Positions 11,434 to 62,400 of a DNA stretch of 64,000 bases are shown here, piece by piece. The stretch covers positions 17,454-81,453 of the forward strand of contig JBMTYG010000001.1 in the NCBI GenBank assembly GCA_049454295.1, read 5' to 3'. Under the pieces are notes generated by a model. That model had not been told where the DNA came from. It did no database searches and worked only from the letters and a program-made list of their open reading frames with translations. The DNA comes from Pseudomonadales bacterium. Lineage in GTDB: Bacteria; Pseudomonadota; Gammaproteobacteria; Pseudomonadales; Azotimanducaceae. The translations under genes and the position numbers were made by a program. Each line of letters starts with the position of its first letter. Within the stretch, counting starts at the first letter, position 1.

Positions 11434-11588
11434 GCGCGACTCCCGTTGGCGATCTAGAACACATTCTCGCAGGTTATGCGGCTGTTTCCTCGACCGCGGC
11501 AACGCTCATCCGGTATCGATGGCGCGCACGAGGTCGCGCGCTGACGAGTGCTATGATGCGCGACCGGAAAACCTGCGTGACGACGATC

Positions 11589-45634: not shown

Positions 45635-45675
45635 TCGGCGACACTCTCGGATTAATTCGTTGAGAAGACACGGTC

Positions 45676-47307
45676 ATGTCTACCGGCGCCGACGATCCAG
45701 AGAGCACGCAGAGTCGCGATGACGCAACGGTCACGCGCGACGCTGCAGCAACCACCATCGCGCGATCGAGCGATGTGGACGAGACCATCGTGCGCGACGC
45801 GGCAGCGACCACCATCGCACGATCGAGCGATATGGACGCGACCGTTGTTCGCGACCCCACGCGACCGAACGACACGCAGCCCCTGACTGGGCCCACGTCC
45901 AGCACTCTGGCACGCACCGGGCAAACTGCCCAGACCGGCGCGACGAGTCCAACCACCGGCGCCACGCGCACCACGGAATTACTCCCAGAGATCGTGCAAT
46001 CGGGCCCGGATCGCGACCTGCGCATCGGGTCCGTCGTGAACGAGCGTTTCGTGATCGAAGGCGTGCTCGGCCGCGGTGGTATGGGCGTCGTCTACCGCGC
46101 CCGTGATTTGCGCAAGGAAGAAACGGGTGATCGCGATCCGCACGTTGCGCTCAAAGTGCTGTCAGACGAATTCCGCCGCGATCCACGCATGGTCATCGCG
46201 CTGCAGCGCGAGTCGCGCAAGGCGCAGACGCTCGCGCACCCGAACATCGCCACGGTGTTCGATTTCGACCGCGACGGCAACATCGTCTACCTCACCATGG
46301 AGGAGCTGGACGGGCGCCCGCTTAATTCCCTGATTCGGGAGAACCCTCGGGGGCTTGCCCAGGCAGAGGCACTCGAGATCATCCGTGGATTATCGAGCGG
46401 ACTCGCCTATGCCCACGACAAAAACATCGTGCACTCGGATTTCAAACCGGGGAACGCGTTCTTCACCCACGCCCGCGCGGTAAAGATCCTCGATTTCGGC
46501 ATTGCACGGGCAGCACCCATGGGGCGCACGGAAGCTTCCGAAGAAACTCGCTTCGACCCGAGCATGCTCGGTGCTCTGACGCCGTCCTACGCCGCCTGCG
46601 AGATGTTTGAGGGACAGGATCCCCACCCGGCGGACGATGTCTACGCGCTTGCTATTGTCGCCTATCAACTGCTGTCCGGACGCCACCCCTTCGGCAGCAA
46701 GCCAGCGCCGCAGGCCCGTGCAGAGAAACTGGTGCCGGCTCCGATCAAGGGTCTCAAGCGACGTCAATGGCGCGCCATTGCACACGGACTCGCGTTCGAG
46801 CGTGCGGATCGCAGCCAAAGCGCGACTGATTTCCTGCGCGAGTTGGAGGGCAGCAATCGGCTCAAGATCATCGCGAGCGCCACGGTTGTCATCTCGCTGC
46901 TGTTTGCAGGCTATGCCGGCTACACCGAGTTCCGGGAGCGGGCGCGCGCACTGCCGGACATTCCATTCGAGGCGTTAAGCGAAGAGAAGCGCGCAATGAT
47001 TCAGGAAGCGCTCCGCGACGGCGTGCAGCTCGAGCGATTTGGCGACGACGGTAACGCATTGATCCTGTACCGGGACGCCTACCGGCTGCATCCGCGCAAC
47101 CCCGAGGTTGTTGCCAAGCTTGAGGCGCTGATGACAGACCTCGTCGAAGAAGCGATCAAGCGCGGCAGAGCCGATGAGCTGCGTCGTGTAGGCGAGAATC
47201 TGAGAGAGCTCATGGCGATCGACGATTTCCTGGCGAAGCATCCCGCCCTGCTGGAGGCGGCGCAGGATCTGTCGAACGCCGAGCGCGCTCGGTCCGGGGG
47301 AACGTGA
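45676..47307 (+). CDS. Membrane Ser/Thr protein kinase (Hanks type) with N-terminal Thr-rich repeats and a C-terminal extracytoplasmic helical domain
   Basis: GVLGRGGMGVVYRARD (G-loop), VALKVL (Lys), IVHSDFKPGNAFF (catalytic loop, non-RD), KILDFGIARA (DFG), SYAACE. TM IIASATVVISLLFAGYAGY, then about 110 aa TPR-like. Confidence 0.9.
   Translation: MSTGADDPESTQSRDDATVTRDAAATTIARSSDVDETIVRDAAATTIARSSDMDATVVRDPTRPNDTQPLTGPTSSTLARTGQTAQTGATSPTTGATRTTELLPEIVQSGPDRDLRIGSVVNERFVIEGVLGRGGMGVVYRARDLRKEETGDRDPHVALKVLSDEFRRDPRMVIALQRESRKAQTLAHPNIATVFDFDRDGNIVYLTMEELDGRPLNSLIRENPRGLAQAEALEIIRGLSSGLAYAHDKNIVHSDFKPGNAFFTHARAVKILDFGIARAAPMGRTEASEETRFDPSMLGALTPSYAACEMFEGQDPHPADDVYALAIVAYQLLSGRHPFGSKPAPQARAEKLVPAPIKGLKRRQWRAIAHGLAFERADRSQSATDFLRELEGSNRLKIIASATVVISLLFAGYAGYTEFRERARALPDIPFEALSEEKRAMIQEALRDGVQLERFGDDGNALILYRDAYRLHPRNPEVVAKLEALMTDLVEEAIKRGRADELRRVGENLRELMAIDDFLAKHPALLEAAQDLSNAERARSGGT
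45718..45855 (+). repeat. About 2.3 copies of a 57-60 nt in-frame tandem repeat in the kinase N-terminus
   Basis: Protein reads DDATVTRD-AAATTIARSSDVDETIVRD-AAATTIARSSDMDATVVRD. The DNA copies (gacgc.gcagc.accaccatcgc.cgatcgagcgat.tggacg) differ at a few mostly synonymous positions. Confidence 0.85.
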
Positions 47308-48163
47308 TGGCATCAAGCCGAGCGAGCCAGTGCGCCCAGTCCCGCGCCCAGCAGCAGACATGGCCAAAACCCGCTACCGTTGCAAAAACCGCGTCGGGTG
47401 CCGCCGCGCGATAGCGCTCGATCAGCTCAGGCGGGACATTCTGGTCCTCGGCGCCCGAGAGATGCAGCGCAGGCGCAGGTGAGACCCGTTTCAGTTCAGC
47501 AGGATTGAGCGAGCCTTCAAGCGCGCTGAAACCGTGAGCGTTAGTCCACGCATCGGTATCCAGATTGGCTGCAACCGTCAAGACGGCGCTGACCTCAGGC
47601 ACGCGATCAGCCACGAGCACGGCAAGCACACCACCACCAGAATAGCCAATGAGCACCACCTCGCGCGCTTGGTGTCGCGCCGCCGTGCGCCGAACCGCGA
47701 GCGCAAGCGCATCGACCACCCGCGGTCCATAACGAGCGATAGTCCAGTCGCGAGCATCACAACCCGTCTGCAGACCGTGATAACAGGGGCGTCCGAGATA
47801 GATCGCCGGCTGAGGGTCCGACACCATCAGATCGAGCACGAGGGGCGCTCGGGGGGTCGGATCCCGCGCGATGCGCCGCGGCGTGACAAACGGGCGACCA
47901 TCACCATCCAGGTAAATGTGCAGCCGAGCGCCGGGTTCACCGGTATGTGTGGTCGTGAAGGTACGCAGAGCAAAAGCACCGGCCGTCACTTCCCCGAGTG
48001 CCAAACCCCGTTCCCGCGCGGAATCATCGAACACGCGATAGGGCGCACTCGCGCATCCCGAAAGCACCCAGCACAGGGTCAAAAGGCCTGCTGCACCCGC
48101 TTTGCAAATGCCCCCTGTGGGCGCTAAGGTCATGCGACAAAGGGGCCCAACGGAAAACCTCAT
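47210..48163 (-). CDS. Alpha/beta hydrolase, probable lipoprotein
   Basis: Lipobox LTLCWVLSGC. LHIYLDGDG, VVLIGYSGGGVLAV (G-x-S-x-G), GFGHVCCW. Start uncertain (ATG 48163 or 48133; track 48316 overlaps the divergent gene). Its 3' end overlaps the kinase 3' end by 98 nt. Confidence 0.65.
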   Translation of the reverse strand: MRFSVGPLCRMTLAPTGGICKAGAAGLLTLCWVLSGCASAPYRVFDDSARERGLALGEVTAGAFALRTFTTTHTGEPGARLHIYLDGDGRPFVTPRRIARDPTPRAPLVLDLMVSDPQPAIYLGRPCYHGLQTGCDARDWTIARYGPRVVDALALAVRRTAARHQAREVVLIGYSGGGVLAVLVADRVPEVSAVLTVAANLDTDAWTNAHGFSALEGSLNPAELKRVSPAPALHLSGAEDQNVPPELIERYRAAAPDAVFATVAGFGHVCCWARDWAHWLARLDAITFPRTERARRSTDPAPPPAGRDASPGNRRSP

Positions 48164-48185
48164 GTTCAGGTCTCTCGACTCGATA

Positions 48186-49913
48186 ATGGCCAAATCCATG
48201 CCACCCGCACTTCGACTTTTCGGCACCCGCTGGGCGCTCTCGGGCGCCATCCTGGTGGGCGCACTTGCTGCCACAAACAGCGCGCAGGCGGCAGACGGCG
48301 GCACTGATTCTGCCATGCAGGGCTACCGCGAGGTCGCCGATCTGTATGTGGTGGATTGTCTCCTGCCCGGACAGGTGCGGCGCCTCGGCCAACGCACCTT
48401 CCTGACACCCAGAAGACCCACCCGAACCACGGCGGCGGATTGCGAGATTCGTGGCGGTGAGTACGTTGCCTATGACCGCGCTGATTATCGGTCGGCGCTC
48501 AACGTATGGATGCCGGCGGCGGAGACGGGTGACGCCGAGGCGCAGGTCAATGTCGGGGAGATCTTCGAGCGCGGGATTGGCGGCCAGCCCAATTACGAGG
48601 CTGCGCGCATTTGGTACGAGAAGGCTGCCGGTCAGGGTAACACCCGAGCGCAGTTCAACCTCGGCACCCTGTACGAGCAGGGGCTAGGCGTGCCCCAGGA
48701 CCAGGTCACCGCGCTCAACTGGTATCGCAAGGCCTGGGGCATCCAGGCTGACGACGTCATTTTCGCCTCTGCTGCTGCACGGGAGCAGGAAGCCCTTCGG
48801 GAAGAACTGGCTCGGGCGGTGGCGGAGAAAGATGCCCAGATCGAGCTTCTAAACAAGCGCCTCGAGGAGCTGCGCACCCAGCTGCAAGCGAGCAGCCAAG
48901 CGGGCGCGGACGCCGCGACTGAGGTTCAGATGCTGAACGGGCTTATCCTGCAGCTCAAATCACAGCGCGATGACAGCGCAAGCAAGCTGGGCGCGATGCC
49001 AGCGGCTGTGGCGGCGGCGCCCACGGTTGCGCCAAACACGGCACCGATGCCTCCGGCGCAGGACGCGCTGCGCACCCGCCAGCCGATCGCCTTGCAGCCC
49101 GCCAATTCGGTCCAGCAGGCCGAAGCTGAGATGCGCTCCTATAGCGGCCTTTCCCTCGGACGTTACTACGCGCTCCTGATCGGCAACCAGAACTATTCGA
49201 GCATCGAGAGCCTGACCACACCGCTGTCCGATTTGGACCGTGCCAAAAGAATCCTCGAGGAGCGCTACGGTTTCACCGTATTTACCGTCGCGGACGGTGA
49301 CAACGTAGCGATCATGAAGGCGATCAACGATCTCTATGACGTGGTCGGGGAAGACGATAACCTGCTGCTCTTTTACGCCGGCCACGGGAATCGGCTAACC
49401 ACTGGCGGCAACGAAATCGGCTATTGGCTGCCGTCAAACGCGGAGGCACCGCCGCGCAACACTTTTTGGGTGGCTAATGAGTTTGTGACCGGGCACCTGT
49501 CGCGCATACGCGCGAAACGGGTGCGGGTGGTTGCCGACTCCTGCTACGCCGGGCTGCTGTCGACTGAACCGAGCTTTCTCATGGTCGGCGACAACGGTCC
49601 CCAGTACAGCAACATGGACTTCCTCAAGTTCAAGCTGGGCAAACGCTCGCGCCTGCTGCTGTCGTCGGGCGGTGACCAACCGGTGCTCGACGAGGGCGGC
49701 GGTCGGCACTCAGTGTTCGCCAAAGCGTTCCTCGATGAACTCGAGAACAATGATCGCCTGCTCCCGAGCCCAGAACTTTTCCTGAGGCTGCAGGCGCAGG
49801 TGACAGAGCGGGCTGCCGAGATGGATTTCAAGCAGACGCCGGAGTTCAAGACCATCAAGGCCGCTGGCCACGAGGTTGGGGACTTCTTCTTCGTGCCCGT
49901 CGCGGCGCGCTGA
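48186..49913 (+). CDS. Secreted Sel1-repeat / coiled-coil / caspase-like (peptidase C14) protein
   Basis: Trimmed to ATG 48186. Signal peptide RWALSGAILVGALAATNSAQA. Sel1 repeats GDAEAQVNVGEIFERGIGGQPNYEAARIWYEKAAGQGNTRAQFNLGTLYEQGLGVPQDQVTALNWYRKAW. Coiled coil REELARAVAEKDAQIELLNKRLEELRTQL. C14 domain YYALLIGNQNY..LLFYAGHGN (His)..VVADSCYAG (Cys). Confidence 0.8.
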   Translation: MAKSMPPALRLFGTRWALSGAILVGALAATNSAQAADGGTDSAMQGYREVADLYVVDCLLPGQVRRLGQRTFLTPRRPTRTTAADCEIRGGEYVAYDRADYRSALNVWMPAAETGDAEAQVNVGEIFERGIGGQPNYEAARIWYEKAAGQGNTRAQFNLGTLYEQGLGVPQDQVTALNWYRKAWGIQADDVIFASAAAREQEALREELARAVAEKDAQIELLNKRLEELRTQLQASSQAGADAATEVQMLNGLILQLKSQRDDSASKLGAMPAAVAAAPTVAPNTAPMPPAQDALRTRQPIALQPANSVQQAEAEMRSYSGLSLGRYYALLIGNQNYSSIESLTTPLSDLDRAKRILEERYGFTVFTVADGDNVAIMKAINDLYDVVGEDDNLLLFYAGHGNRLTTGGNEIGYWLPSNAEAPPRNTFWVANEFVTGHLSRIRAKRVRVVADSCYAGLLSTEPSFLMVGDNGPQYSNMDFLKFKLGKRSRLLLSSGGDQPVLDEGGGRHSVFAKAFLDELENNDRLLPSPELFLRLQAQVTERAAEMDFKQTPEFKTIKAAGHEVGDFFFVPVAAR

Positions 49914-49923
49914 TCTCGCGTCG

Positions 49924-50967
49924 CTAGAGGAAATTGCTCGCTAACCAGAGCGCAGCGCCGGTTGCCGCCGCGACCATGAGACCGATGATGAGGTTGCGGC
50001 GTCCAGAGCCACTCCCTTTAGCTTTGCCCGGGCGCGAGGAGGCGGGGCTCTTAGCGCGGGCCGCGCTGCCGTACAAGCGAATCTCACATTCCACCTGAGC
50101 GAACCGCAGCTTGTCGCCCTGCTGGAGATAGCTGATCGTCGTCTTATGTCCGTTCACCCAGGTGCCATTAGCAGACATCTGGTCAATGATGCGCCAGCGC
50201 CCGCTCTCTTCGACAATTTTCGCGTGGTAGGCGGACACGCCGGAAAACTCGAGGCGAATATCGCGCTCTTCCGCCGTGCCGATGGTCCACTCCCCTCGAC
50301 CCTCAACGAGGGCAAAGGCCATGCCCGCTGCCGGGCCTGCCACAATCACCAGGTGCGGTCCCTCGATGTGCATGGGCGCAGGCGCCTCGCCGGGGGTAGC
50401 AGGCGCATTGCCACCGCCTTCCGCCAGAGCGCGCATTTCCTCCGCCGAGAGGATACGCGTACCCTCCCCCTGATAGTCCGGGTCCGCCCAACTCCTCGGC
50501 ACATGGCTCTGCAATGCCTCGGCCTCAAACCGCGGCGCGGCGGGAGCAGGCTCAGGGGCTGCGGCTGCGGCTTCAGGGGCTGCCGCTGCCGGGGTTGCGG
50601 GACGCATCACCGTCGCGTCAGGCTCTGGAGAACGGCGAATGACGGTGACGTCAGCGTCGTCGACTGCTTCCGCTTCCGGCGCCTCGACCACAAAGGACGC
50701 GAGATCAAACGCAACCCGATCGCCTCGATAGAGCAATGTGCGTGAGGCAATGCGCTGCCCGTTAACCGTCGTGCCGTTCGCGGAACCCAGGTCCTCGACC
50801 CACAAGCCATCGTCATCCAGCGTGAGCATCGCATGGCGTCGCGAAGGATGCCCTTCCGTTACCTTGAGCGCCGCATCATCACCGCGCCCCACAAGCGTCG
50901 GACCACGAATCTCGGTGCGATCGGAACCGCCCGGGTCATCGCCTTTGATCAGAAAGAAACCGCTCAT
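49924..50967 (-). CDS. Tail-anchored protein with two FHA domains
   Basis: FHA1 LVGRGDDAALKVTEGHPSRRHAMLTLDDDGLWVEDLGSANGTTVNGQRI. Ala/Pro linker. FHA2 TIGTAEERDIRLEFSGVSAYHAKIVEESGRWRIIDQMSANGTWVNGHK. C-terminal TM RRNLIIGLMVAAATGAALWLASNFL. The ATG overlaps the PP2C stop (ATGA). Confidence 0.88.
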   Translation of the reverse strand: MSGFFLIKGDDPGGSDRTEIRGPTLVGRGDDAALKVTEGHPSRRHAMLTLDDDGLWVEDLGSANGTTVNGQRIASRTLLYRGDRVAFDLASFVVEAPEAEAVDDADVTVIRRSPEPDATVMRPATPAAAAPEAAAAAPEPAPAAPRFEAEALQSHVPRSWADPDYQGEGTRILSAEEMRALAEGGGNAPATPGEAPAPMHIEGPHLVIVAGPAAGMAFALVEGRGEWTIGTAEERDIRLEFSGVSAYHAKIVEESGRWRIIDQMSANGTWVNGHKTTISYLQQGDKLRFAQVECEIRLYGSAARAKSPASSRPGKAKGSGSGRRNLIIGLMVAAATGAALWLASNFL

Positions 50968-51749
50968 GAGGATCTCATCCACATCCAGATTGAAAACGCC
51001 AGAACCCCGACCAGGGCACCGGCCAGCACGGGGATCCACGCCGAAGATACCGGAGAATAACGGATCACGATGGCCGTTGCGTCATCACCGCCACGCTGCG
51101 CGCGCACCGCTTCGATCAGCGCATCCGCACACGCCTGCGGGTCGTCCGTATCGGCAACGATTTCCGCCATGCGGCGATCATTGAGCTCGCCGGTCACGCC
51201 GTCCGTGCAGAGCAGCAGAAGATCATCCGGTTCAAGCTGCATTCGGACTTGGTCGATACTCGGTTGCTCAAACCCGAGGCAGCGCAGCAGCACATTGCGA
51301 TCCGGGTGGGTCTCAGCCTGCGCAGGGCTAATGCGTCCCTGCTGCACCATCTGCTGCACGAGAGAGTGATCCCGCGTCAGCCGTCTTAGCTCTCCATCCC
51401 GCCACAGATAGGCGCGACTGTCGCCTACCCACGCAATGCGTGCCTCTCCGCTGCGCTGCTCGACATGCGCAGCCACCACCGTGGAACCCATTCCTCGACG
51501 TGCCCGCACTTCGCTACCTTTGCGCACGACGGCTGCATGGGCGTCAGCAATGGCATCGACCAATCCGCGCTTCCGCTCTACTGCGAAGAGCACGCTGTCT
51601 CGAGCTACCTGGCTTGCAACATCACCCGCCGCGTGGCCGCCCATGCCATCGGCGACGACCCAGACGCCACGACCCGGGAGCGCGCCGTGGGCGTCCTCGT
51701 TCACCTGATGACGTACCCCGGTGAGCGTCTGCACGCCATAGCTGGTCAT
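50964..51749 (-). CDS. Tail-anchored PP2C-family Ser/Thr phosphatase
   Basis: VNEDAHG, VVADGMGGHAAGDVAS, LLLCTDGVTGEL, GGDDATAIVI. C-terminal TM WIPVLAGALVGVLAFSIWMWM. Starts 5 nt after the stop of the c554-like cytochrome gene. Confidence 0.9.
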   Translation of the reverse strand: MTSYGVQTLTGVRHQVNEDAHGALPGRGVWVVADGMGGHAAGDVASQVARDSVLFAVERKRGLVDAIADAHAAVVRKGSEVRARRGMGSTVVAAHVEQRSGEARIAWVGDSRAYLWRDGELRRLTRDHSLVQQMVQQGRISPAQAETHPDRNVLLRCLGFEQPSIDQVRMQLEPDDLLLLCTDGVTGELNDRRMAEIVADTDDPQACADALIEAVRAQRGGDDATAIVIRYSPVSSAWIPVLAGALVGVLAFSIWMWMRSS

Positions 51750-51754
51750 GGCGT

Positions 51755-53020
51755 TCAGAGACTGGCCGCAAGACGGGTCATGGCAACCCGGAATTTCGCC
51801 GGATCATAGCTGCGGTCTGTTTCGACAGTTGCGAACACCGCATCCAGCGCGCCCTGCAGGCGATCGTGGTCGCCGATGTGGTAAGACAGACTTTCAATGC
51901 CGAGAAACGCCTGCTCGGCCGCAGCGAAGTCGGTGAGCGTTCCATTCGCGCCCATCTGCCCGATTGCCTTACGCACCGCCAAGGCCTGGGCAGCGGAGGC
52001 TTTGCCCGTGGTCCAGGGCTGACTGTCGATCCAGCGCGCAAGTTCCGCTGCCGCTGTGCGCGTTGCCGGTACGCTCTGCTGCCCGGCTTTGAGATAGGCA
52101 ACCTGAAGCCGCCGCAAGTTGTCGAGCTCAGCGGGTGCAAGCACGCTGGCGACCGCCCGCAGCATATACAGATGCTGGTCCTGTAGACGCAGACCGCCAG
52201 GCTCAAGGCCCTGTTGACGCCGCTCCTCAGCCCAGCGCAGATCGTCCATCGGGTGATGACAGCTGTGGCAGTCGAAGAACGCAAAGTCTGGCACACCCTC
52301 GCGCAAGAGCGGGGTATTCAGAAGTTCGAGGTGCCGACGGGCGCTTTGCAGCTGTCCTGCGCGCCAGACGTCGAACCCACTCGGCTGCCCCTTGCGCTGC
52401 ACATAATCTTCGTCGACCCCATAGTGCGCGGGCTGATTCACCGTATACGCCTCAAGCTCGAACGATAGGCGCGGGTGGCCTGCGCCCATGATGCGGTGTG
52501 TGGCGAACTGGTTGCCGGTCCCAAGGTGACAGGACAGACAAACTTCGGCACGGACGTTGATGTCCTCGGTCGCGAGCATACCCTTGGCCAGATTGTCGGC
52601 ATGACGCGTGCCGGGTTCGGTGTGGGTTTCAAGCCAGAGCTCCGCACCCCCATGACAGGCTTCGCAGCCAACGCCGTCGGACAGCTGGAACTTGGGTCCA
52701 CGCTGCTCCGCCGGCACATTGTCGGCGTGGCAGTCGAGGCAGATCTTCGCCGTATGCGCACTCGGCAAACCGAGCTTACGCGCGATCGCCTTGGACTCCG
52801 GCGTGAGCAGTGTTTGATAGGCTCCCGAGTGCTGGTCCTCGGAAGACCAAATACGGTACTCATTCAGCCAGACGTTACTGTTCGCCTGCTCCTCCAGCTT
52901 GCCATGACACACACCGGTCGCGCAGCTCGCCACGCCCATGTGCTTGCGCGAGTCCAGCGGCTCGGCAGCGGCAGGCAGCCCCACCAGCAGCAGCAGCAAA
53001 AGCGCGGCGCGTCCCATCAC
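51755..53020 (-). CDS. Periplasmic multihaem c-type cytochrome (cytochrome c554-like N-half, helical C-half)
   Basis: Signal peptide AALLLLLLVGLPAAA. Four CxxCH (CLDCH, CEACH, CLSCH, CHSCH) plus one CX4CH-like site (CATGVCH), all in the first about 260 aa. Start GTG 53020 or ATG 53017, overlapping the upstream stop. Confidence 0.8.
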   Translation of the reverse strand: MMGRAALLLLLLVGLPAAAEPLDSRKHMGVASCATGVCHGKLEEQANSNVWLNEYRIWSSEDQHSGAYQTLLTPESKAIARKLGLPSAHTAKICLDCHADNVPAEQRGPKFQLSDGVGCEACHGGAELWLETHTEPGTRHADNLAKGMLATEDINVRAEVCLSCHLGTGNQFATHRIMGAGHPRLSFELEAYTVNQPAHYGVDEDYVQRKGQPSGFDVWRAGQLQSARRHLELLNTPLLREGVPDFAFFDCHSCHHPMDDLRWAEERRQQGLEPGGLRLQDQHLYMLRAVASVLAPAELDNLRRLQVAYLKAGQQSVPATRTAAAELARWIDSQPWTTGKASAAQALAVRKAIGQMGANGTLTDFAAAEQAFLGIESLSYHIGDHDRLQGALDAVFATVETDRSYDPAKFRVAMTRLAASL

Positions 53021-56000
53021 CGGCCACCTCCTGCCATTGGTTGCTCGGGCATGGTCTCCGGGGTCGCGACGGGCGCCGGCTCTGCCGAGGGCATCGCGTT
53101 GGTCACGGACCAGGGCTTGCCGTCCTTCAAGTAGAGCCGATGCATCTCAGGCAGCGTGAAGGGCCGCGAACCACGACGCCCAAACACCGCTACCTGGCCA
53201 CCCGTTTCATCGACGCCCCGGTCGCGCTCCAGCCCCTTCGACAGCGACAAGGCCGGCGTCGTGGTCGGGAAGTGGGCGATGAGTCGAGGATTCGGTTCAG
53301 GGCTGAATCCGTAGAATTTGGGCTGCAGTTCCGGCGAGGTGAGTTGCAGCACCTTGAGTCCGCCCGCGCCGTCAGCCACATAGGCGAACAGCGAGGCATT
53401 CGTTGAGGCCACAACCACGTCGCGCGCGTCCACCAAACGCCCATCGGCATTGAACTGCCGATACGCGCGCATAGCCTCCGGTCGCTCGACATCTACGATC
53501 AGTACACCGTCACGTCCCGCCGCAACGTAGGCATAGGTACGCGACACAAAGACGCCGTGCGCGTCAGCCACTGGGACCGTGTTGTTAGGAACCAGGCGCG
53601 GCACCTCCGGCTGGGTCACGTCCACGGCCTTTAGACCCTCGGCGTCTGTCACAAACAGATAGCGGAATTGCAGCGACGCCCCACGCGGTTCCACCAAGGG
53701 AAGCGTTGCCGTCAGGGTCGGCGCCAGCGGGTTATCCACATTCACGATCACGAGCGCCGCGGGCGTTAGCACATAGGCGTAGTGACCGCCCAGGGTAATG
53801 AAGCGTGCGCCGTTCAACACGCCACCGGGGTTCCAGGTCGCCCCGCGCTTGAGGAAGTTGTTGCGCGGTTCGCCGTCGACCAGTGTGTCGACGTTGACGG
53901 TGATCAGCCCTTCTTCAGCGTCGGTGATGAACATGTAGCTGTAGATCGGGTGGATCGGCTGCTCCATGTTGGTGACGCGCATGAGTTCGCCTTCGTTACG
54001 CGCCGGATTGACCGGCTGGTTCGTCGGCAGCGCCATGCAGGTCGCGTTCTTCGACTCCACCCGCGTGTCATGACCAAGCGGACTGAACGGCGCCGTGATG
54101 ATGCGTTGGGAAATGCCCTTATTCGAGACACTGGCCGCATCGAATACGCGCGTGCCCTCGGATCCAGCGGCCGCAAACACATATTCGCCGCGCAATTGCA
54201 CGCAGTGGATCGGCCCGCTCGGGTGGTTGTAGCCGTGCTCGAGCTTCTGACCGCGCGTTTCGTGATCACGGAACCAGTCCGGATACGCATAACGATGCAG
54301 ATAGCTGCCAATGACTGCCTGAGGCTCATCCCACTCCGTCACCTGCACCGCTTCGAGCGAGCCTTCCGCGCCGACCCAAGCGTTGTAGCCGATGAAGTTG
54401 ATGAAGTTGGTCCCGAACATGAGCAGCTGCGCCATGATCGCGTTGTTGTCATTGCGTTCCGAGATGTGGCAGTCCTCGCACATCTTGGTTTCGGTCTTGC
54501 GTTCCGTGTGCGGATAGTGGGGGTTGAAGGCCTGCGAGGAATAACCGCTTGAGGCAATCGGCGGCTGCTGAATATAGATCTTCTCACGGTTCGCATTGGT
54601 CGAGGACAGGACCAGCGCCGACGTCGAGCGCACCGGCGCAATCTTGCCGCTCTTCGACGGCTCACGCATGCCGAGCAGGAACATGTCGTCCCGCGCCACC
54701 TGCGGGTTGTAGGTCGCGTAATTGCGGCTCTCACCGCCCTCGTAGTGGTGCCGCTCGGTCTTCCAGTTCGCTTCGATCGGCAGATGGCAGCCGCCGCAGG
54801 ACGTCGTCCAAGAGGTATGACAGGTGTAGCACTCCATGTTCTCATCGGAGTGCGCAAGCTCACCGCTTGGCACCTGAGGACCCCATGTCTGTTTGGCCGT
54901 GTCGCGGCTCATCAGCTTGGATCGCGCGGCCACCGGGTTAAAGGCGGGATTGCCCGGCGTGACGGAGTCCTTGACCAGCGACATTTCCCACTCGAGCTTG
55001 GGATCCAGCATGGAGCGCTGATAGAGCTTGTCGCCGATCCACTCAAACCGACGCCGTCCGTCCGGCGTCCGCAGCGTCGTCAGATCCATTCCGCCTTCGA
55101 GCGCAGCTGGCCCCGAGGTGTACAGGTTGGGGTACGACTTCGCCGTGCCATGACAATCCTTGCAGCCGATCTCGACGGCAAGCGCCACCTCGCCATGAAT
55201 GTGGCCGTTGCCGTGGTTGTCCTGAGAGAAATGACAGTCGACACAGTGCATGCCCACATCCACGTGAATCGATGACATGTGCACGGCTTTGTCGAACTTC
55301 TCTGGATCCTCGTCCGAGACCTTGTTGCCCTCGGCATCGAGCAAATTGCCTTTGCGATCGCGCTTGAAGATCGCGCGGAAATTCCATCCGTGACCGTGGT
55401 AATCCGCGAACTGGGTGTCCGAGAGCTGCGGGTTCAGGTCGGATACGTTCTTCAGGAATTCCACATCCGCCCATTTACCCCGGGGCGCGGCACCCTCTGG
55501 GTTGCGATCGAGCGTCTTGCGCACCTCTGCATCGCTTGGGTACTGCTGCTCCTCCGGCCACATGTGCGGCGCATCGGATTCATAGTCCCACATGGTGTAA
55601 CCCAGATAGGTGTTCATGAACATGTTGGGCTGGTGCATGTGGCAGATCATGCATTGGCTGGTCGGGATCGCGCGGGTGAAGACATGCTGCAGCGGATGCC
55701 CGGTGCGATCCTTCGGAATGGTTGGGTCCAGCGTGATGCTCTTGCCCTCGTGACCATGCTGCGCATAGGGCCCGGAATGCCGGGGATCACGATCATTGGC
55801 ATAGACCACATGGCAGGAGGCACAGCCCGAATTGCGATAATCACCCGGTTGATCATTGGTACCCGAGAACCACAGGAACGGATCATTCAGACGGGTCTTG
55901 GTGATGTTGATGAGCGGCACTGAGATGCGAGCGCCGGTCCCAGGACCACGGTTTGACTGACGGATGTCGGGACGCCCAGGCTCCTCAATGCGTTGCAGCT

Positions 56001-56817
56001 GGCCGAGCGAATTTGGCAGGCCTGTCTCTGGAAACAGATTGCTGATGTTGCGCCCGCCACGCTCGAACACGCGGAAAATGTCGCCGGGTTTAACCGTCTC
56101 CCAGGTCGGAAGCGGGTAGAGATAGGGCAGCACGCCCTTCGCTTCCATTTCATCCTTGAGCTCATCCGGCACCTTCGGTCCATAGAGAATCGAAGGCTGT
56201 CCGTCGTCGGTATAGGACTCGCCGATCATGTAATTCTTGAACGGCAAAATGCCGTTGTTATACGCGGCTCCACCCCAGAGCATGGCGCCCGTCGCATGGA
56301 GGCTGCGAATGGATGCCTCGATTATTCCTTGGTGACACGCGCCACAGGCGAGAGAAGCCACGCGATTGTCCGACGGGTTAGTGAAGCGTATGAATTCGCG
56401 CGACTCGCGGTTTAGCAGCGTGTACGTGCGTTCGGGGTTGGCGCTCGAGGGGTAATGCCAGTCATCCGGGTAGCGCGGCAGCACGTGCGCCTGTTCCTGA
56501 ATCGCCGTGTATTGGGCGCTGCCCGCGGGGACACCCTCCTTAAGGGATACACCCGCATTGCCGCCATGACAGTCAGTACAACCGAGGCGTACCGCCGGGT
56601 TTACGTGCATGGTCTTGGTATCAGACTGGGTATGGCAGGAGATGCAGCCCTCACTTTTTGCTGCCGCTTGGGCCACGGTCTGACGTTCAGGCGCGGCGGG
56701 CGCCATAACGTAATCACGCTCGACCGCCTTCGATGCAGAACTCGCCCACGCCGCCGGAAGCGCGCCGACCGTGGCGAGAACGACAACGAGACTCTTGACC
56801 AGTGTTCGTTTGTCCAT
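53017..56817 (-). CDS. 1266-aa secreted decahaem c-type cytochrome fused to a C-terminal LVIVD-repeat (beta-propeller) region
   Basis: Signal peptide LVVVLATVGALPAAWA. Ten CxxCH between residues 58 and 785: CISCH, CTDCH, CGACH, CASCH, CMICH, CVDCH, CKDCH, CYTCH, CGGCH, CEDCH. C-terminal repeats are described in the next entry. The start codon shares 1 nt with the porin stop (TGATG). Confidence 0.85.
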   Translation of the reverse strand: MDKRTLVKSLVVVLATVGALPAAWASSASKAVERDYVMAPAAPERQTVAQAAAKSEGCISCHTQSDTKTMHVNPAVRLGCTDCHGGNAGVSLKEGVPAGSAQYTAIQEQAHVLPRYPDDWHYPSSANPERTYTLLNRESREFIRFTNPSDNRVASLACGACHQGIIEASIRSLHATGAMLWGGAAYNNGILPFKNYMIGESYTDDGQPSILYGPKVPDELKDEMEAKGVLPYLYPLPTWETVKPGDIFRVFERGGRNISNLFPETGLPNSLGQLQRIEEPGRPDIRQSNRGPGTGARISVPLINITKTRLNDPFLWFSGTNDQPGDYRNSGCASCHVVYANDRDPRHSGPYAQHGHEGKSITLDPTIPKDRTGHPLQHVFTRAIPTSQCMICHMHQPNMFMNTYLGYTMWDYESDAPHMWPEEQQYPSDAEVRKTLDRNPEGAAPRGKWADVEFLKNVSDLNPQLSDTQFADYHGHGWNFRAIFKRDRKGNLLDAEGNKVSDEDPEKFDKAVHMSSIHVDVGMHCVDCHFSQDNHGNGHIHGEVALAVEIGCKDCHGTAKSYPNLYTSGPAALEGGMDLTTLRTPDGRRRFEWIGDKLYQRSMLDPKLEWEMSLVKDSVTPGNPAFNPVAARSKLMSRDTAKQTWGPQVPSGELAHSDENMECYTCHTSWTTSCGGCHLPIEANWKTERHHYEGGESRNYATYNPQVARDDMFLLGMREPSKSGKIAPVRSTSALVLSSTNANREKIYIQQPPIASSGYSSQAFNPHYPHTERKTETKMCEDCHISERNDNNAIMAQLLMFGTNFINFIGYNAWVGAEGSLEAVQVTEWDEPQAVIGSYLHRYAYPDWFRDHETRGQKLEHGYNHPSGPIHCVQLRGEYVFAAAGSEGTRVFDAASVSNKGISQRIITAPFSPLGHDTRVESKNATCMALPTNQPVNPARNEGELMRVTNMEQPIHPIYSYMFITDAEEGLITVNVDTLVDGEPRNNFLKRGATWNPGGVLNGARFITLGGHYAYVLTPAALVIVNVDNPLAPTLTATLPLVEPRGASLQFRYLFVTDAEGLKAVDVTQPEVPRLVPNNTVPVADAHGVFVSRTYAYVAAGRDGVLIVDVERPEAMRAYRQFNADGRLVDARDVVVASTNASLFAYVADGAGGLKVLQLTSPELQPKFYGFSPEPNPRLIAHFPTTTPALSLSKGLERDRGVDETGGQVAVFGRRGSRPFTLPEMHRLYLKDGKPWSVTNAMPSAEPAPVATPETMPEQPMAGGGR
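53323..54216 (-). other. LVIVD-type repeat region (at least 6 repeats) of the 1266-aa cytochrome
   Basis: Residues about 868-1165: IHCVQLRGEYVFAAAGSEGTRVFDA; IYSYMFITDAEEGLITVNVD; GARFITLGGHYAYVLTPAALVIVNVDNP; GASLQFRYLFVTDAEGLKAVDVTQP; AHGVFVSRTYAYVAAGRDGVLIVDVERP; ARDVVVASTNASLFAYVADGAGGLKVLQLTSP. Confidence 0.7.
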
Positions 56818-58709: not shown

Positions 58710-60718
58710 ACGTCCTCCTCGCTGCTGTCGCGGAACGGTGCCTGCGGGCACTGCACGTAGCGCAAGCGCACGTCGCGCGGTGTCAGCGTGTCCGCACGTT
58801 GCGCCCTGGGGGCATTGCCCACAGAGCCGTTGAGCGCAATGCCACCGTTGTGTGCGCCCAGAAACGCGATCATGTCGTCCTGATCGACGCCATCGCCCGA
58901 TACGCCAATACCGCCAACCAGCGTTGTGCCGCGATAGAGCGGTACCCCGCCAGGAAAGATCTGCAGCCCGTTGGCGAGCTGACGGCTATTGGTGGTCTGC
59001 GTTGCAACCAGTGACGCTGCCAGTTCGATGCCCGCGCAGTTCGTACCTACATCCGGAGTGCCTACCCCCGCGACAAACAGCACATGCTGGAGGATTGCGT
59101 TGTGCGCCAGATCGAGCTGCAATCCGGTCGAGAACGCGCTCCACTCGGCAAACGGCTTTGAGAGCGGGCCGTGTGGTTCGCTCTGCAGACCGTCCGGATA
59201 GAACGGACGCGAAAGATTGGCGATGCTGCGCTCGGCAAAAGCGATCGCGCCATCGCCAAGCAGCGTGGGCATGCCGGTGAAGGCGCGCAGGTCAGTGATG
59301 TAGGTGCCGATCGGGCTTGGCGTGAAACTGACGGCGTCAGAAGCCGTGGTCAAATACTGCGCCGCCGGCAGACCCGTTAGAAATTCCGCTGCGGTCGGGG
59401 CCGAAAACAGTGTCGCTGACCGCGCCTTCTGCAACGAAACGTCGGCACCAAACACGGGCGCGTCACGCGTGCGCACCATGCCAAGAATTTCCCCCCGGGT
59501 GTCGACTACGCTGATGGTAACCCGCGCCTGACTGCCGAGCGGACGACGGATCTGTGCGCGGGCACGATTCGCGACTGCAAGCGCCTCACGCAGGAGAACG
59601 CGCACCTCATTCTCCGAAAGCCCGCCATCGGTCCCCGCACGGGGCGGAAACCGGGGCTGATCGCTCGCATCAACAAAGATAAACGCGTCCTGCCCCGGGA
59701 AATCGACCGTGTCAGGTCTAATCCCCGAAGCCGGGTCGCCAAACGACACGCCCTGACGCAGGTTACCGTCCGTGTAGCCCGGCACGGGAACCAGCCCACC
59801 ATCCGCCGCAGTGAGCGTGCTGAACCCCGGCGCGGACGCCGGATCTCGCGCCAGATTGGAAAATTCAACATCGCTGAAGCGGAACGTCTTGCCGTCGACC
59901 GTAATCCGGTCCGCGCGTCGGTCCGGCGGTGCGGCAAACCCAAAGGTCGCGGCGGTGGCAATGAGTTCGTCCACATCGCGGTCGCTATCGGCGATAAATT
60001 TATCAAGGCTGTAGCGTCCATCTGCGATAGCACCGACGCCACCCACCACGGTGCCGTTTTTATAGAGCGGCATGCCACCGGGATCTGCAGACAGCCCAAG
60101 CGGCGACCGCTGCGGACCGACAGTGACCCCTAGTCCATCGGCGCGCTGCATGAAATCCGAGCAGGCAAGCTGGCTGAACTGGACGCCAAACAGCGGGCCC
60201 CCTGCCTGATCGCGCTCACCGGGGTTGAAGTGCTCCTGCACAATCTGGCCTGCCGTGCGGGTGGTGAAGGCGTTGCCCTCGCTCGAGAGATAAGCACCCG
60301 TGACCGCCTTGGCAATCGCTGCCTGATGGTCGAGCGCGAACGGCAGTCCCGGCTGCGGCAGTGCGATGCCCTCGAGCCCACCCGACACCGTGGCGCGCCC
60401 CTCGTCATCCGTCGCCGTCGCGATGAGCACAGGCAGCGGATCGGCGCCCATACGATAGACACCGAGGACATTACCCACCCGGTCAACGACCGCGAGCGTA
60501 GCCCGGACATCGCGCGCCTTTGCCTCAGCCACCCCCTGAGCCAGTACGCGCTCCACTTCGGCGACGGTCAGCAGCGTCGAGGTGTCGGCACAGGACCCGC
60601 TGCACCCTCCGCTCGGCGGCTGGCTGGTCCCGGTGGTGCTGCCGCTGCCACCTCCGCCACCGCAGCCGGCTAGCGCCAGAACGGCAATCAGGGCGGCAAA
60701 AAAGGGAGTTCGCATCAC
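58694..60718 (-). CDS. Lipoprotein with two GlcG/HbpS-like (DUF336, haem-binding/haem-degrading type) domains
   Basis: Lipobox AVLALAGCGGGGGSG. Domain 1: LTVAEVERVLAQGVAEAKARDVRATLAVVDRVGNVLGVYRMG..GGMPLYKNGTVVGGVGAIADG. Domain 2: LSENEVRVLLREALAVANRA..ARVTISVVDTRGEILGMVRTRDAPVFGADVSLQKARSATLFS..GGVPLYRGTTLVGGIGVSGDGVDQDDMIA. Confidence 0.7.
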   Translation of the reverse strand: MMRTPFFAALIAVLALAGCGGGGGSGSTTGTSQPPSGGCSGSCADTSTLLTVAEVERVLAQGVAEAKARDVRATLAVVDRVGNVLGVYRMGADPLPVLIATATDDEGRATVSGGLEGIALPQPGLPFALDHQAAIAKAVTGAYLSSEGNAFTTRTAGQIVQEHFNPGERDQAGGPLFGVQFSQLACSDFMQRADGLGVTVGPQRSPLGLSADPGGMPLYKNGTVVGGVGAIADGRYSLDKFIADSDRDVDELIATAATFGFAAPPDRRADRITVDGKTFRFSDVEFSNLARDPASAPGFSTLTAADGGLVPVPGYTDGNLRQGVSFGDPASGIRPDTVDFPGQDAFIFVDASDQPRFPPRAGTDGGLSENEVRVLLREALAVANRARAQIRRPLGSQARVTISVVDTRGEILGMVRTRDAPVFGADVSLQKARSATLFSAPTAAEFLTGLPAAQYLTTASDAVSFTPSPIGTYITDLRAFTGMPTLLGDGAIAFAERSIANLSRPFYPDGLQSEPHGPLSKPFAEWSAFSTGLQLDLAHNAILQHVLFVAGVGTPDVGTNCAGIELAASLVATQTTNSRQLANGLQIFPGGVPLYRGTTLVGGIGVSGDGVDQDDMIAFLGAHNGGIALNGSVGNAPRAQRADTLTPRDVRLRYVQCPQAPFRDSSEEDVCVNK

Positions 60719-62391
60719 GGGTCGGTCTCCGTCGCGACGGTGGGGTGGAATTCATGGCAATCGATGCAGTCGACGGGGATCAGCTGCGGCTGATGGCGAT
60801 CGCCATGACAACTCACGCATTGCTGAATATCCGGCATCAGCACGTCGCTGCTCGCGGTCGACGTATCCGCTGCATGGCAGTCGAGGCACGCATCGTCCCC
60901 GGCGGCGTCTTGCTGGGTCAGATGCGCGGCGTGATCGAAACGCGCGCTGCGGAAAAAGTCCGGGGTTAACCGAACCGGCGCTACCTGATAACGCCCGAGC
61001 AGATCATCCGTATCGTGCACCGCGACCTGGTGACAAGTGACACAGCCCCGCACGGTAAACTGGGTTTCTGCCTCGCGCGCGGTGCGCTCTCGAGCACAGA
61101 TATACGCCGGACCGGTGCAGGTCTCTGCCTGACGCGCATGATCGGGCAACCGACGCCAGGTTCGCTTTGGCAGGTCGAGCGTTGGGTCCGCGAACACGCG
61201 CATGTAATGACCTTCCATCACCAGCAGCGCTTCGCTGGGATTCCCGTGCGGCAATTCGCGATCAGGCGCCGTGCGATCGAACTTGAGATCATGGCAGTCG
61301 CGGCAGTGCTGCTCCATACGAATGGGCGCGAAATGTTCGCCATCGGGCTGCAGGGTGTGACAATCGGCGCACACTAGCGCAGCCCCGGTCGTGAGGTTTT
61401 GCACCTTGCCCGGATCGAGATGCACGTCGTGCGGGTACTTGAGGTTTGACGGATCCACTGCGTCTGGTAATGGGCTCGACTGCCAGGTCCAATCGTAGGC
61501 GAAGCCTGTGCCCCGCCGCACGTGACTGCTGGTGAGCAGATCAACGGCAAACGGTGCGTGGTCCGCCTCGGAGAAACCGGCCACCGCCGCGAGCCGATTG
61601 TCCGGCCAATCCGGTTCGGCGTGACAGTCGGTGCAGAGCGTATCCGCGCGGATCACCAGATGCGGCGGCGTGTTGTGTTCCTTGTGACAGGACGCGCAGC
61701 GGACGGTATCGAGCCCCACATGGCTGTTGAGCGGCTCCGGCGCGTGGTTCGCCATCGCGCCATGGCAGGTCGTGCAGGCAGTGTCCGGCACTCGTTCGAA
61801 CGGCTTCACGTGACAGGCCTTGCAATCATCGCCCACCGCGACCGCGTGCGCAGGCAGCAATGGACCGCTAGACCAGACATCATCAGTGCTCCACCAGGGA
61901 ATCGCGTCGATATCCACTGCGAAAGGAAGCACGAGTCCAAAGAGCAGCACGATGCCCGCCAAGATCCACGCCGGGCGCCGACGGCCAAGCCGGGTCTGCT
62001 CGAGATCTACGGAGAACGCTGCCTCGAACGCTGCGGGTGAAACTTCTTTCTGCGGCTCTACCTCCAGCGCCCCGGCGAATCCCGCAGGGGGCTTTAGCAC
62101 CCGCACGCGCGCGCCGGCGAGCTCAAGCGTCTGCCCTGGTTCAAGGCGACCGCTGCCCACTGCCGCCCCGTCAATCGCAACGGCGCTGCCACGCACGCAG
62201 CGAACGTCGAAGGCCACCCCAGACGGCGTAAGCGTCACATGCTGCGGCGCCACGTCGGCGCCATACACCTGAATCACCGCGTCGACCGAACTGCCCAGCG
62301 TGACTGCAGGGACTGTGACCTCCCGATCGCGAAATACCGCGCTGGGTGTGCCGGGAAGACCTGAGATGAGTTCGCGCAGAAGAATTTGCAC
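60715..62391 (-). CDS. Inner-membrane-anchored decahaem c-type cytochrome (c3/c7-like repeats) with a cytoplasmic FHA-like N-terminal domain
   Basis: Residues 20-100: FRDREVTVPAVTLGSSVDAVIQVYGADVAPQHVTLTPSGVAFDVRCVRGSAVAIDGAAVGSGRLEPGQTLELAGARVRVL (FHA-fold pattern). RLGRRRP followed by TM AWILAGIVLLFGLVLPFAV. Ten CxxCH: CKACH, CTTCH, CASCH, CTDCH, CADCH, CRDCH, CVTCH, CLDCH, CVSCH, CIDCH. Confidence 0.8.
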   Translation of the reverse strand: MQILLRELISGLPGTPSAVFRDREVTVPAVTLGSSVDAVIQVYGADVAPQHVTLTPSGVAFDVRCVRGSAVAIDGAAVGSGRLEPGQTLELAGARVRVLKPPAGFAGALEVEPQKEVSPAAFEAAFSVDLEQTRLGRRRPAWILAGIVLLFGLVLPFAVDIDAIPWWSTDDVWSSGPLLPAHAVAVGDDCKACHVKPFERVPDTACTTCHGAMANHAPEPLNSHVGLDTVRCASCHKEHNTPPHLVIRADTLCTDCHAEPDWPDNRLAAVAGFSEADHAPFAVDLLTSSHVRRGTGFAYDWTWQSSPLPDAVDPSNLKYPHDVHLDPGKVQNLTTGAALVCADCHTLQPDGEHFAPIRMEQHCRDCHDLKFDRTAPDRELPHGNPSEALLVMEGHYMRVFADPTLDLPKRTWRRLPDHARQAETCTGPAYICARERTAREAETQFTVRGCVTCHQVAVHDTDDLLGRYQVAPVRLTPDFFRSARFDHAAHLTQQDAAGDDACLDCHAADTSTASSDVLMPDIQQCVSCHGDRHQPQLIPVDCIDCHEFHPTVATETDP

Positions 62392-62400
62392 AGCGCGCCC

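Follow-up and report, generated by a model that had tools for sequence, protein, structure and literature searches.

Several described systems resemble parts of the locus that we report here, a PP2C phosphatase gene and a double forkhead-associated (FHA) gene at the 3' end of a multihaem cytochrome operon, with a Hanks kinase gene nearby, in a Pseudomonadales bacterium. In type VI secretion systems (T6SS), a transmembrane (TM) Hanks kinase, a PP2C phosphatase and an FHA protein (PpkA/PppA/Fha1) are encoded with an envelope-spanning machine and are placed at its cytoplasmic face. In Actinobacteria, the fhaA-fhaB-pstP-rodA-pbpA-pknA-pknB operon combines the membrane-anchored phosphatase PstP with FHA proteins and TM Hanks kinases. 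GarA and OdhI, also actinobacterial, are small soluble proteins in which an N-terminal Thr is followed by a single FHA domain; they regulate enzymes of the tricarboxylic acid cycle and of glutamate metabolism, and docking motifs are common to the kinase tail and its substrate. The DNA examined here is a stretch of 64,000 nucleotides (GenBank assembly GCA_049454295.1, contig JBMTYG010000001.1, positions 17,454 to 81,453 of the forward strand), which is referred to as a whole as the window and in which positions are counted from the first letter.

On the cytochrome side, Ferrigenium straubiae has a trio of genes for a Fer4 protein, a 5-TM protein and an FHA-nonahaem cytochrome; an FHA domain on multihaem cytochromes was described there as previously unreported and was taken to suggest regulation (bioRxiv 10.64898/2026.01.22.701106). 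A "forkhead-associated" decahaem cytochrome has also been recorded in Gallionellaceae (PMC9900912). PCC3/PCC4 clusters encode a five-TM putative di-haem-b protein of approximately 300 amino acids (aa) with two WX3HX13H motifs and an SGXXG motif (He et al. 2017, PMC5566968). Studies of multihaem/porin conduits have dealt mostly with structure and transcription, and little with fast on/off switching. The initial annotation of the window knew of no kinase/PP2C/FHA triad on such a conduit, and a full-text literature search, with subscription journals outside its range, likewise found no work linking FHA/PP2C/Hanks kinase signalling to multihaem cytochromes or extracellular electron transfer. The locus appears to couple a signalling triad of known kind to a class of target that is new for it.

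Results

Arrangement of the gene row

The minus-strand gene row of the window and its plus-strand neighbours were read directly from the sequence, and domains were assigned by Pfam and NCBIfam profiles (Table 1). The row runs from an Fe-S gene through genes for a 5-TM protein, an FHA-decahaem cytochrome, an HbpS-like lipoprotein, a porin-like protein, an LVIVD decahaem cytochrome and a c554-like cytochrome to the PP2C and double-FHA genes, and neighbouring genes overlap or are separated by no more than 9 nt throughout. The TGA stop of the c554-like gene (51757-51755) is followed, after the 5-nt spacer acgcc (51754-51750), by the PP2C ATG at 51749-51747. The PP2C stop, TGA at 50966-50964, overlaps the ATG of the FHA gene at 50967-50965 as ATGA, and both junctions therefore read as initially annotated. 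No sigma-70-like promoter was detected by a consensus scan of 47000-64000, including the PP2C and FHA junctions, and a scan of these junctions revealed no convincing terminator. GC content and GC content at third codon positions were uniform over the genes of the row. As part of the overall reading developed below, the PP2C and double-FHA genes are likely to be the final two genes of the cytochrome operon and to be co-transcribed with it.

Conservation of the linkage

The 1266-aa LVIVD decahaem cytochrome has more than 7900 database homologues, its relatives occur in no fewer than 595 species-representative genomes from the Gamma-, Beta- and Alphaproteobacteria, and the core gene order was conserved in 80 fetched loci (numbered with the prefix L). 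Of these, 67 loci from other species were informative, with 1 kb or more of sequence beyond the cytochrome genes. A PP2C and/or FHA-family gene was present on the same strand directly downstream of the cytochrome genes (of c554, where there is one) in 25 of the 67, spread over many gammaproteobacterial families, and both genes were present in 17. When the cytochrome was at least 69% identical to that of the window, the PP2C/FHA module was found in 15 of 17 loci. Carriers include Oceanicoccus, Steroidobacter, Spongiibacteraceae, Pseudoteredinibacter, Agarilytica, Haliea, Granulosicoccus, Alcanivoracaceae, Spectribacter and Salinisphaeraceae.

The linkage was also examined in the reverse direction. 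The profile of the double-FHA family yielded 326 proteins, and all seven members that were looked up, including the most distant listed ones (E about 1e-67), sit right after the c554 or PP2C gene of the cluster. The initial annotation had named a lack of conservation in related genomes as evidence against its proposal; both directions of the analysis indicated that the linkage is kept. Comparison of the divergence of the FHA protein with that of the decahaem cytochrome gave a Mantel r of 0.79, reached by none of 5000 permutations, as would be expected after a long period of shared inheritance; some correlation would, however, be seen for any pair of genes taken from these genomes. A near-twin of the window was found on contig JBMTPA010000001.1 of the "Pseudomonadales bacterium" metagenome-assembled genome (MAG) GCA_049443225.1 (L087), with an FHA protein 99% identical and a hydrolase 97% identical to those of the window.

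PP2C and double-FHA proteins

The product of the PP2C gene matched the Pfam PP2C (7.5e-14), SpoIIE (1.2e-13) and PP2C_2 (2.8e-11) profiles and the NCBIfam Stp1/IreP model (5.4e-58; 196 bits, under the equivalog cut-off of 230). Its best solved relatives were tPphA (2.2e-35), the T6SS phosphatase PppA (3e-34) and PstP (7e-28). The translation contains the motifs NED, DGMGG(34), GST(88), GDSR(109), TDG(182) and GGDD(220), of which DGMGG, GDSR, TDG and GGDD were located by regular expression; DGMGG, GDSR and TDG are the same in tPphA, and GGDD stands opposite GRDN. The metal-binding acidic motifs are intact, these being features of the PPM family, and Mn2+/Mg2+-dependent pSer/pThr phosphatase activity is predicted.

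The double-FHA protein matched Pfam FHA in two stretches (9.8e-30). An AlphaFold2 model showed two FHA sandwiches with pLDDT values of >90 (FHA-N, residues 1-100; FHA-C, residues 200-300), a disordered 100-residue linker between them (101-200) and a C-terminal helix at 322-346. By hydropathy, a single C-terminal TM was detected in each protein, at approximately 238-258 in PP2C and at 325-345 in the double-FHA protein. Both had been annotated as tail-anchored with basic residues before the helix; the anchors were upheld, and the basic flank was clear in the double-FHA protein (GRR just before the TM) but weak in PP2C (one Arg upstream and one after the helix). Membrane tethering is kept among orthologues, most PP2C and FHA proteins ending in a TM. 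The double-FHA proteins of Spectribacter (L022:15771-16772), a Salinisphaeraceae MAG (L030:15461-16669) and an Aquimonas MAG (L040:5207-6277) have no TM but carry a C-terminal amphipathic basic sequence, FLRRLFGRG. The PP2C proteins of the Spectribacter, Salinisphaeraceae and Aquimonas MAG loci are likewise without a TM.

Conservation was examined in an alignment of 53 double-FHA family members with 27 to 85% identity to the window protein. The phosphothreonine (pThr) pocket of FHA-N (G27, R28, S42, R43, H45 and N64) is canonical in the window and invariant in the 53 sequences. In FHA-C, the window protein has G230, S245, H248 and N267, the last three being invariant, and the Arg position is variable and is occupied by T231. 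FHA-N is thus predicted to have a complete pThr pocket and FHA-C only part of one. In the linker, T108 and R111 are kept in at least 90% of members, and W160 and T170 are invariant.

Comparison with known FHA proteins placed the nearest relatives in the GarA/OdhI group. The top Foldseek matches of the model were GarA and OdhI (TM-score of 0.95 and rmsd of 0.8 Å), and the segment from residue 162 through FHA-C aligned to residues 8-133 of OdhI (E 8.9e-11), with T170 opposite the ETTS phospho-site (T14/T15). Membership in the GarA/OdhI equivalog was rejected, as the score with the NCBIfam OdhI model NF041660 was 64.9 bits (cut-off, 200), a second FHA domain and a TM are present, and only the unit of T170 and FHA-C aligns. 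The likeness to these soluble single-FHA proteins is confined to the C-terminal half of a protein that is anchored in the membrane and has two FHA domains. The top NCBIfam match was FhaB/FipA (1.5e-27; 97 bits against a cut-off of 125). This match and that of PP2C to PstP are shared features with the actinobacterial fha-pstP-pkn operon, which differs in its Gram-positive host and in having cell-wall synthesis genes instead of cytochromes.

The T6SS analogy drawn in the initial annotation holds as a likeness in working, with PppA among the best solved matches of PP2C; the nearest relatives of the FHA protein, however, are GarA and OdhI and not T6SS Fha. The locus further differs from the T6SS triad in the two FHA domains with a tail anchor, in the lack of a von Willebrand factor A (vWA) domain in the kinase by Pfam, and in the machine, which is a multihaem/porin-like cluster. 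As had been stated initially, no T6SS genes were found among the window open reading frames (ORFs) scanned, of approximately 200 aa and longer, and T6SS families were also absent from the gene tables of loci L081-L091. Membership in the T6SS pathway was rejected on this ground and on the failure of the TagH/Fha1 model TIGR03354 (54.3 versus 120.25 bits).

A motif shared by kinase tails and FHA linkers

In the N-terminal tail of the window kinase, T[VI]xR occurs five times within residues 18-59, against an expected 0.16, and the linker of the window FHA protein contains two T[VIM]xR motifs, at T108 and T119. As the strict T[VIM]xR expression undercounted the motif in kinase tails (14 of 118), a broader acidic-Thr-hydrophobic pattern, [DE]xT[IVLMRQ][IVLMAY] (for example, DDATIVV), was utilized. 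This pattern was detected in 96 of 117 kinase tails, at 2.35 per 100 aa, compared with 0.06 over the remainder of these kinases. Of 115 FHA linkers, 65 contained it (1.23 versus 0.15). In Spectribacter and Salinisphaera, the kinase tail and the FHA linker both carry T-[EQ]-hydrophobic instead. These patterns suggest that a short linear motif ties the kinase tail to the FHA linker.

The FHA-fold head of the inner-membrane decahaem cytochrome

The initial annotation had assigned an FHA-like N-terminal head to the inner-membrane decahaem cytochrome. This was confirmed with a family profile of the head, which matched solved FHA domains (FhaA at 1.9e-12, GarA, Rv1747 and OdhI). Pfam FHA was matched individually by 28 of 33 orthologues; the window copy gave no Pfam match, and its head has GS for GR at residues 33-34 and hence no pocket Arg. 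The pocket Arg was lost from the head in all 14 loci with a tail-anchored module (13 GS and 1 GG) and GR was kept in 34 of 35 loci without the module (Fisher p 2e-11, a value that ignores phylogeny, the head change probably being one evolutionary event). This loss fits a handover in which the separate FHA protein took on the reading of pThr from the head built into the cytochrome. A head with the pocket Arg was present in 40 of the 56 sampled decahaem subunits that had a readable head, so that pThr control may reach much of the family, including clusters without extra genes and the homologues in iron oxidizers. In Limnobacter (L036, L043 and L069), the decahaem orthologue apparently begins just before the TM and lacks the FHA head, which may be an issue of start-codon calling.

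The kinase and its neighbours

The kinase has the catalytic motifs GRGGMGVV132, VALK (K160), HSDFKPGN253 (non-RD) and DFG273, which identify it as Hanks type, and hydropathy indicated a TM at 396-416 followed by a conserved periplasmic helical domain at 417-543. The initial annotation of a Hanks kinase with a TM helix was correct in these respects, and the gene was found to lie outside the operon, on the opposite strand, with the Sel1-caspase and hydrolase genes between it and the FHA gene.

The same kinase family, with the periplasmic domain, adjoins the cluster in the near-twin MAG GCA_049443225.1, in the relative with a 92%-identical cytochrome, in Spectribacter, in Salinisphaera sp. PC39 and in L089, where cluster and kinase are separated by a glutamate dehydrogenase gene, a neighbour seen once. 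In the Salinisphaeraceae MAG (L030), it lies approximately 8 kb downstream of the cluster. More broadly, kinases of several architectures were located beside the cluster or inside it on the same strand in the window, L087/L091, L022/L023, L085, L082, L086, L011, L016, L035 and L089, the kinase being within the cluster on the same strand in two lineages. The hydrolase and the Sel1-caspase protein accompany the kinase between loci. A module of kinase, Sel1-caspase protein, hydrolase lipoprotein of approximately 274 aa and outer-membrane barrel (an autotransporter, with DUF5916 in the window) was observed in the window (43148-49913) and in L085, L086, L088, L089 and L090. The T6SS kinase is accompanied by periplasmic and outer-membrane accessories, TagQRST, to which these companions are comparable. 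The kinase is probably the cognate of the PP2C/FHA pair; this is graded as probable and not as certain because the reverse examination of the kinase gave no exclusive linkage.

Other signalling genes at the same position

Signalling genes of other types occupy the same slot in other loci. An adenylate/guanylate-cyclase-FHA fusion follows c554 directly, and is itself followed by PP2C, in L063 (15124-16826) and L074 (11439-13143). In Fontimonas (L035:16245-20234), a cyclase-FHA gene stands with PP2C and two kinase genes beside a c554 gene that is approximately 6 kb away and on the other strand. The 1266-aa cytochrome is followed in two Geminicoccaceae loci by an FHA protein whose TM is N-terminal. 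Small soluble kinases come after the double-FHA gene in L011 and L016, and in L082 a 794-aa kinase is encoded downstream on the same strand. In L086, the cluster is split in two, with the PP2C, FHA, autotransporter, kinase and hydrolase genes between the halves and all on one strand, and the Sel1-caspase gene comes after them.

The cyclase-FHA genes of L035, L063 and L074, each found with PP2C, have an analogue in Bdellovibrio DgcB (PDB 6hc0/6hc1), an FHA-GGDEF protein activated by its phosphorylated tail, which was also among the Foldseek structural matches of the double-FHA model. DgcB differs in being a diguanylate cyclase, against the class III adenylate/guanylate cyclase here, and in not being cytochrome linked; the cyclase-FHA variant is absent from the window. 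Two further observations were made at these positions. An FHA-T2SSE fusion (GspE/PilB-like ATPase; L011:18942-20714) lies on the opposite strand approximately 3 kb downstream of the double-FHA/kinase pair in one locus only, and a gene for a cyclic nucleotide (cNMP)-binding/patatin phospholipase follows the signalling genes in the related loci L082 (14921-16729) and L083 (11842-13629).

The putative conduit and remaining genes of the window

Table 1. Positions of the signalling genes, conduit genes and neighbours in the window
Feature	Position	Strand	Basis or remark
DUF5916/CBM9-like secreted protein, 828 aa	43148..45634	+	42 nt upstream of kinase; other genomes have autotransporter barrels in this place
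Hanks Ser/Thr kinase, 543 aa	45676..47307	+	Pkinase 5e-34
Alpha/beta-hydrolase lipoprotein, 274 aa, GYSGG	47210..48034	-	Kept beside kinase; 36-53% identity in L085, L086
Periplasmic Sel1-repeat and caspase (Peptidase_C14) protein	48102..49913	+	Convergent with FHA gene, 10-nt gap; travels with kinase
Tail-anchored double-FHA protein, 347 aa	49924..50967	-	Pfam FHA, AlphaFold2, Foldseek
Linker with candidate phospho-acceptors T108 (TVIR), T119 (TVMR) and T170	50458..50646	-	D-A-T-V-x-R motifs, then invariant P157-x-S-W160 ... G-T170-R-I-L
Tail-anchored PP2C (PPM) Ser/Thr phosphatase (predicted), 261 aa	50964..51749	-	Pfam, NCBIfam and solved-structure matches
c554-like periplasmic cytochrome, 421 aa, four CXXCH and one CX4CH, signal peptide	51755..53020	-	Pfam, motif count
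Decahaem cytochrome with C-terminal LVIVD beta-propeller, 1266 aa, signal peptide	53017..56817	-	Pfam, motif count
Putative outer-membrane beta-barrel (porin-like), ~630 aa	56817..58709	-	Weak porin match (1e-4), signal peptide, C-terminal Tyr
Lipoprotein with two HbpS-like (GlcG) domains, 674 aa	58694..60718	-	Pfam
Inner-membrane decahaem cytochrome: cytoplasmic FHA-fold head (1-~100), TM 140-160, periplasmic part with 10 CXXCH	60715..62391	-	Profile, hydropathy
Five-TM inner-membrane protein, 289 aa, two WX3HX13H and SGXXG (putative di-haem b), of the PCC3/PCC4 inner-membrane protein type	62401..63270	-	Regular expression
3' part (4Fe-4S region) of cytoplasmic input subunit; gene continues past window end	63260..64000	-	Comparison with relative

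The apparent 240-aa ferredoxin ORF at the end of the window is the 3' end of a gene of approximately 848 codons for an FAD/cNMP-binding/4Fe-4S protein with two cNMP-binding domains. In the relative with the 92%-identical cytochrome (L091:1012-3558), this input subunit is complete and is an 848-aa fusion of Pyr_redox_2, two cNMP_binding domains and Fer4 (4Fe-4S dicluster); the fusion with two cNMP-binding domains was present in all 10 loci sampled from Gamma-, Beta- and Alphaproteobacteria. Betaproteobacterial loci have the input-subunit gene after c554 (for example, at L036:15155-17617) and not at the start of the cluster. The motifs of the five-TM protein were located at W109...H113...H127, W294...H298...H312 and SGIVG150 in a 320-aa ORF (minus 31 for the 289-aa numbering). 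The assignment of a porin role to the barrel is weak and tentative. The composition of the row suggests a conduit in which electrons would leave the cytoplasmic flavo-Fe-S subunit, cross the inner membrane and reach first periplasmic and then outer cytochromes.

The conduit shares with the Ferrigenium trio the inner-membrane module of an Fe-S protein, a 5-TM protein and an FHA-TM-multihaem cytochrome; unlike the window, the trio was not reported with genes for a kinase, phosphatase, separate FHA protein, porin, LVIVD cytochrome, c554 or HbpS. With PCC3/PCC4 it shares the five-TM motifs, the upstream Fe-S gene, a porin and several multihaem cytochromes. It differs from PCC4 in its haem counts, which are 10/10/4 (plus one CX4CH) here versus 4/5/10 in the three periplasmic cytochromes that accompany the porin of PCC4, and in the LVIVD propeller, the HbpS-like lipoprotein and the FHA head, and none of six genera from the related loci appears in the supplements of PMC5566968. 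These differences in haem counts, composition and listed taxa led to the rejection of an identity with PCC4. The uet cluster of Tenderiales, from the one paper found in which LVIVD and multiheme occur together, was judged to be a different system.

The remaining genes of the window, scanned as ORFs of approximately 200 aa and longer, are housekeeping genes (acyl-CoA dehydrogenases, ppx, rho, argH, lysA, dapF, xerC, thrC, amt, comM and methylcrotonyl-CoA carboxylase). A haem-biosynthesis operon, hemC-hemD-hemX-hemY, was observed at 7553-11502 on the minus strand.

Discussion

The gene order, the domain content, the conserved residues, the linkage and the shared motif are properties of the locus itself, and from them we infer phosphorylation, its sites, its target and its effect on electron flow. 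Our reading, held with moderate confidence, is that the PP2C and double-FHA proteins are conduit-dedicated subunits which are held on the cytoplasmic face of the inner membrane and which form, with the TM Hanks kinase, a reversible Thr-phosphorylation switch. The earlier proposal for this locus was supported in that every element that sequence data could test held, and the effect on the conduit is the part that is purely inferential.

The form of switch that we favour is a membrane-tethered GarA-like phospho-switch, docked to the kinase via FHA-N and reset by PP2C. An envelope cue would be read by the periplasmic domain of the kinase, and the hydrolase lipoprotein and Sel1-caspase protein would probably take part in this. 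The kinase would phosphorylate acidic-Thr-hydrophobic motifs of the type DDATVV in its own N-terminal tail and at T108 and T119 of the FHA linker, and also the invariant T170. The canonical FHA-N domain would dock onto the pThr sites, and phosphorylated T170 could fold back on an FHA domain, as in GarA and OdhI. Contact between the FHA protein and the input assembly, which is composed of the FAD/cNMP/Fe-S subunit, the di-haem-b protein and, from the decahaem cytochrome, its FHA-fold head, would be altered and electron entry would thereby be gated, until PP2C reset the switch. The cNMP-binding domains of the input subunit and the occurrence of cyclase-FHA variants make the cytoplasmic electron input a plausible regulated step. 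For these variants, a chain from phosphorylation via cyclase and cNMP to the input subunit is plausible.

Several observations weigh against this reading. The module is missing from about 60% of the sampled clusters (those of betaproteobacteria and most of those of alphaproteobacteria), which indicates that the conduit works without PP2C and FHA. The window kinase is on the other strand from the operon, and two of three further kinase orthologues (L088 and L090) were found with a Sel1-caspase-like gene and an autotransporter and with no cytochrome cluster within 10 kb, which places the kinase in a module of its own, found frequently but not invariably beside the conduit. The T[VIM]xR motif is absent from the cytoplasmic parts of the window conduit proteins, and hence no phospho-site can be proposed on the conduit. 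FHA-C (T231) and the decahaem head (GS) lack the pocket Arg, so that not every FHA fold at the locus can be expected to read pThr. Furthermore, the motif and linkage counts were obtained with phylogenetically related sequences and are descriptive and not independent statistics.

Three other explanations were weighed against the switch. The double-FHA protein and the decahaem head could be a scaffold that builds or stabilizes an inner-membrane subcomplex, as for Fha1/TssL in the T6SS and for SctD/YscD, an FHA-TM-periplasmic ring protein of type III secretion, with PP2C and the kinase timing assembly and not activity. The Yop-YscD_cpl family matches both FHA domains as well as the decahaem heads, the decahaem protein shares an FHA-TM-periplasmic topology with SctD/GltG, the tail anchors set all partners in one membrane plane and Agrobacterium Fha is reported to bind phospho-TssL and thereby to activate the T6SS (PMC3953482). 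We nevertheless regard such a scaffold as unlikely: most clusters assemble without the module, the nearest relatives in sequence and structure are the GarA/OdhI switches and not Fha1/TagH, and the cNMP-binding domains and cyclase-FHA variants indicate regulation of activity. A still less probable explanation reverses the direction of signalling, such that the module would inform another process, for example 2-oxoglutarate/glutamate metabolism, of the conduit's redox or assembly state and would be in the operon only for co-expression. This explanation would account for the alignment of T170 and FHA-C with OdhI, phospho-site included, and for the glutamate dehydrogenase gene in L089. However, this neighbour occurs only once, the score with the OdhI model is far below its cut-off, the tethering of PP2C and FHA by a TM or an amphipathic helix would be unexpected for a regulator of soluble enzymes, and every family member looked up is in the cluster.

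Chance insertion of a generic PP2C/FHA pair at the 3' end of the operon, with no functional tie to the cytochromes, is in our judgement very improbable. Such genes and kinase genes are common and mobile, and many clusters lack the module. Against this stand the persistence of the linkage from family to family in spite of FHA protein identities of only 27-40%, the outcome of the reverse examination, the co-divergence of the FHA protein and the cytochrome, the recruitment beside the cytochrome genes of other types (cyclase-FHA, N-terminal-TM FHA and small soluble kinases) and the position of the signalling genes of L086 between two halves of a cluster on one strand.

The phosphorylation switch therefore remains our preferred reading, and a broader proposal can be put forward tentatively, as a possibility that we rate below it. 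The locus may represent the first control of a machine of the extracellular electron transfer type by eukaryote-like Ser/Thr phosphorylation (Hanks kinase/PP2C/FHA), in a widespread and unstudied conduit that would lead from an NAD(P)H-type flavo-Fe-S input via di-haem b to multihaem cytochromes, with the input gated by pThr and cyclic nucleotides and with pThr control perhaps family-wide. Members of the cluster are annotated as hypothetical despite their wide spread. A dedicated set of kinase, phosphatase and FHA protein offers a genetic handle in the cultured hosts Steroidobacter, Pseudoteredinibacter, Oceanicoccus, Spectribacter and Salinisphaera, with T108, T119 and T170 as named candidate phospho-sites, and gives a rationale for the unexplained FHA domain on the multihaem cytochromes of iron oxidizers. 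If the proposal is true, respiratory electron export would join secretion, division and metabolism among the targets of bacterial Hanks kinases.

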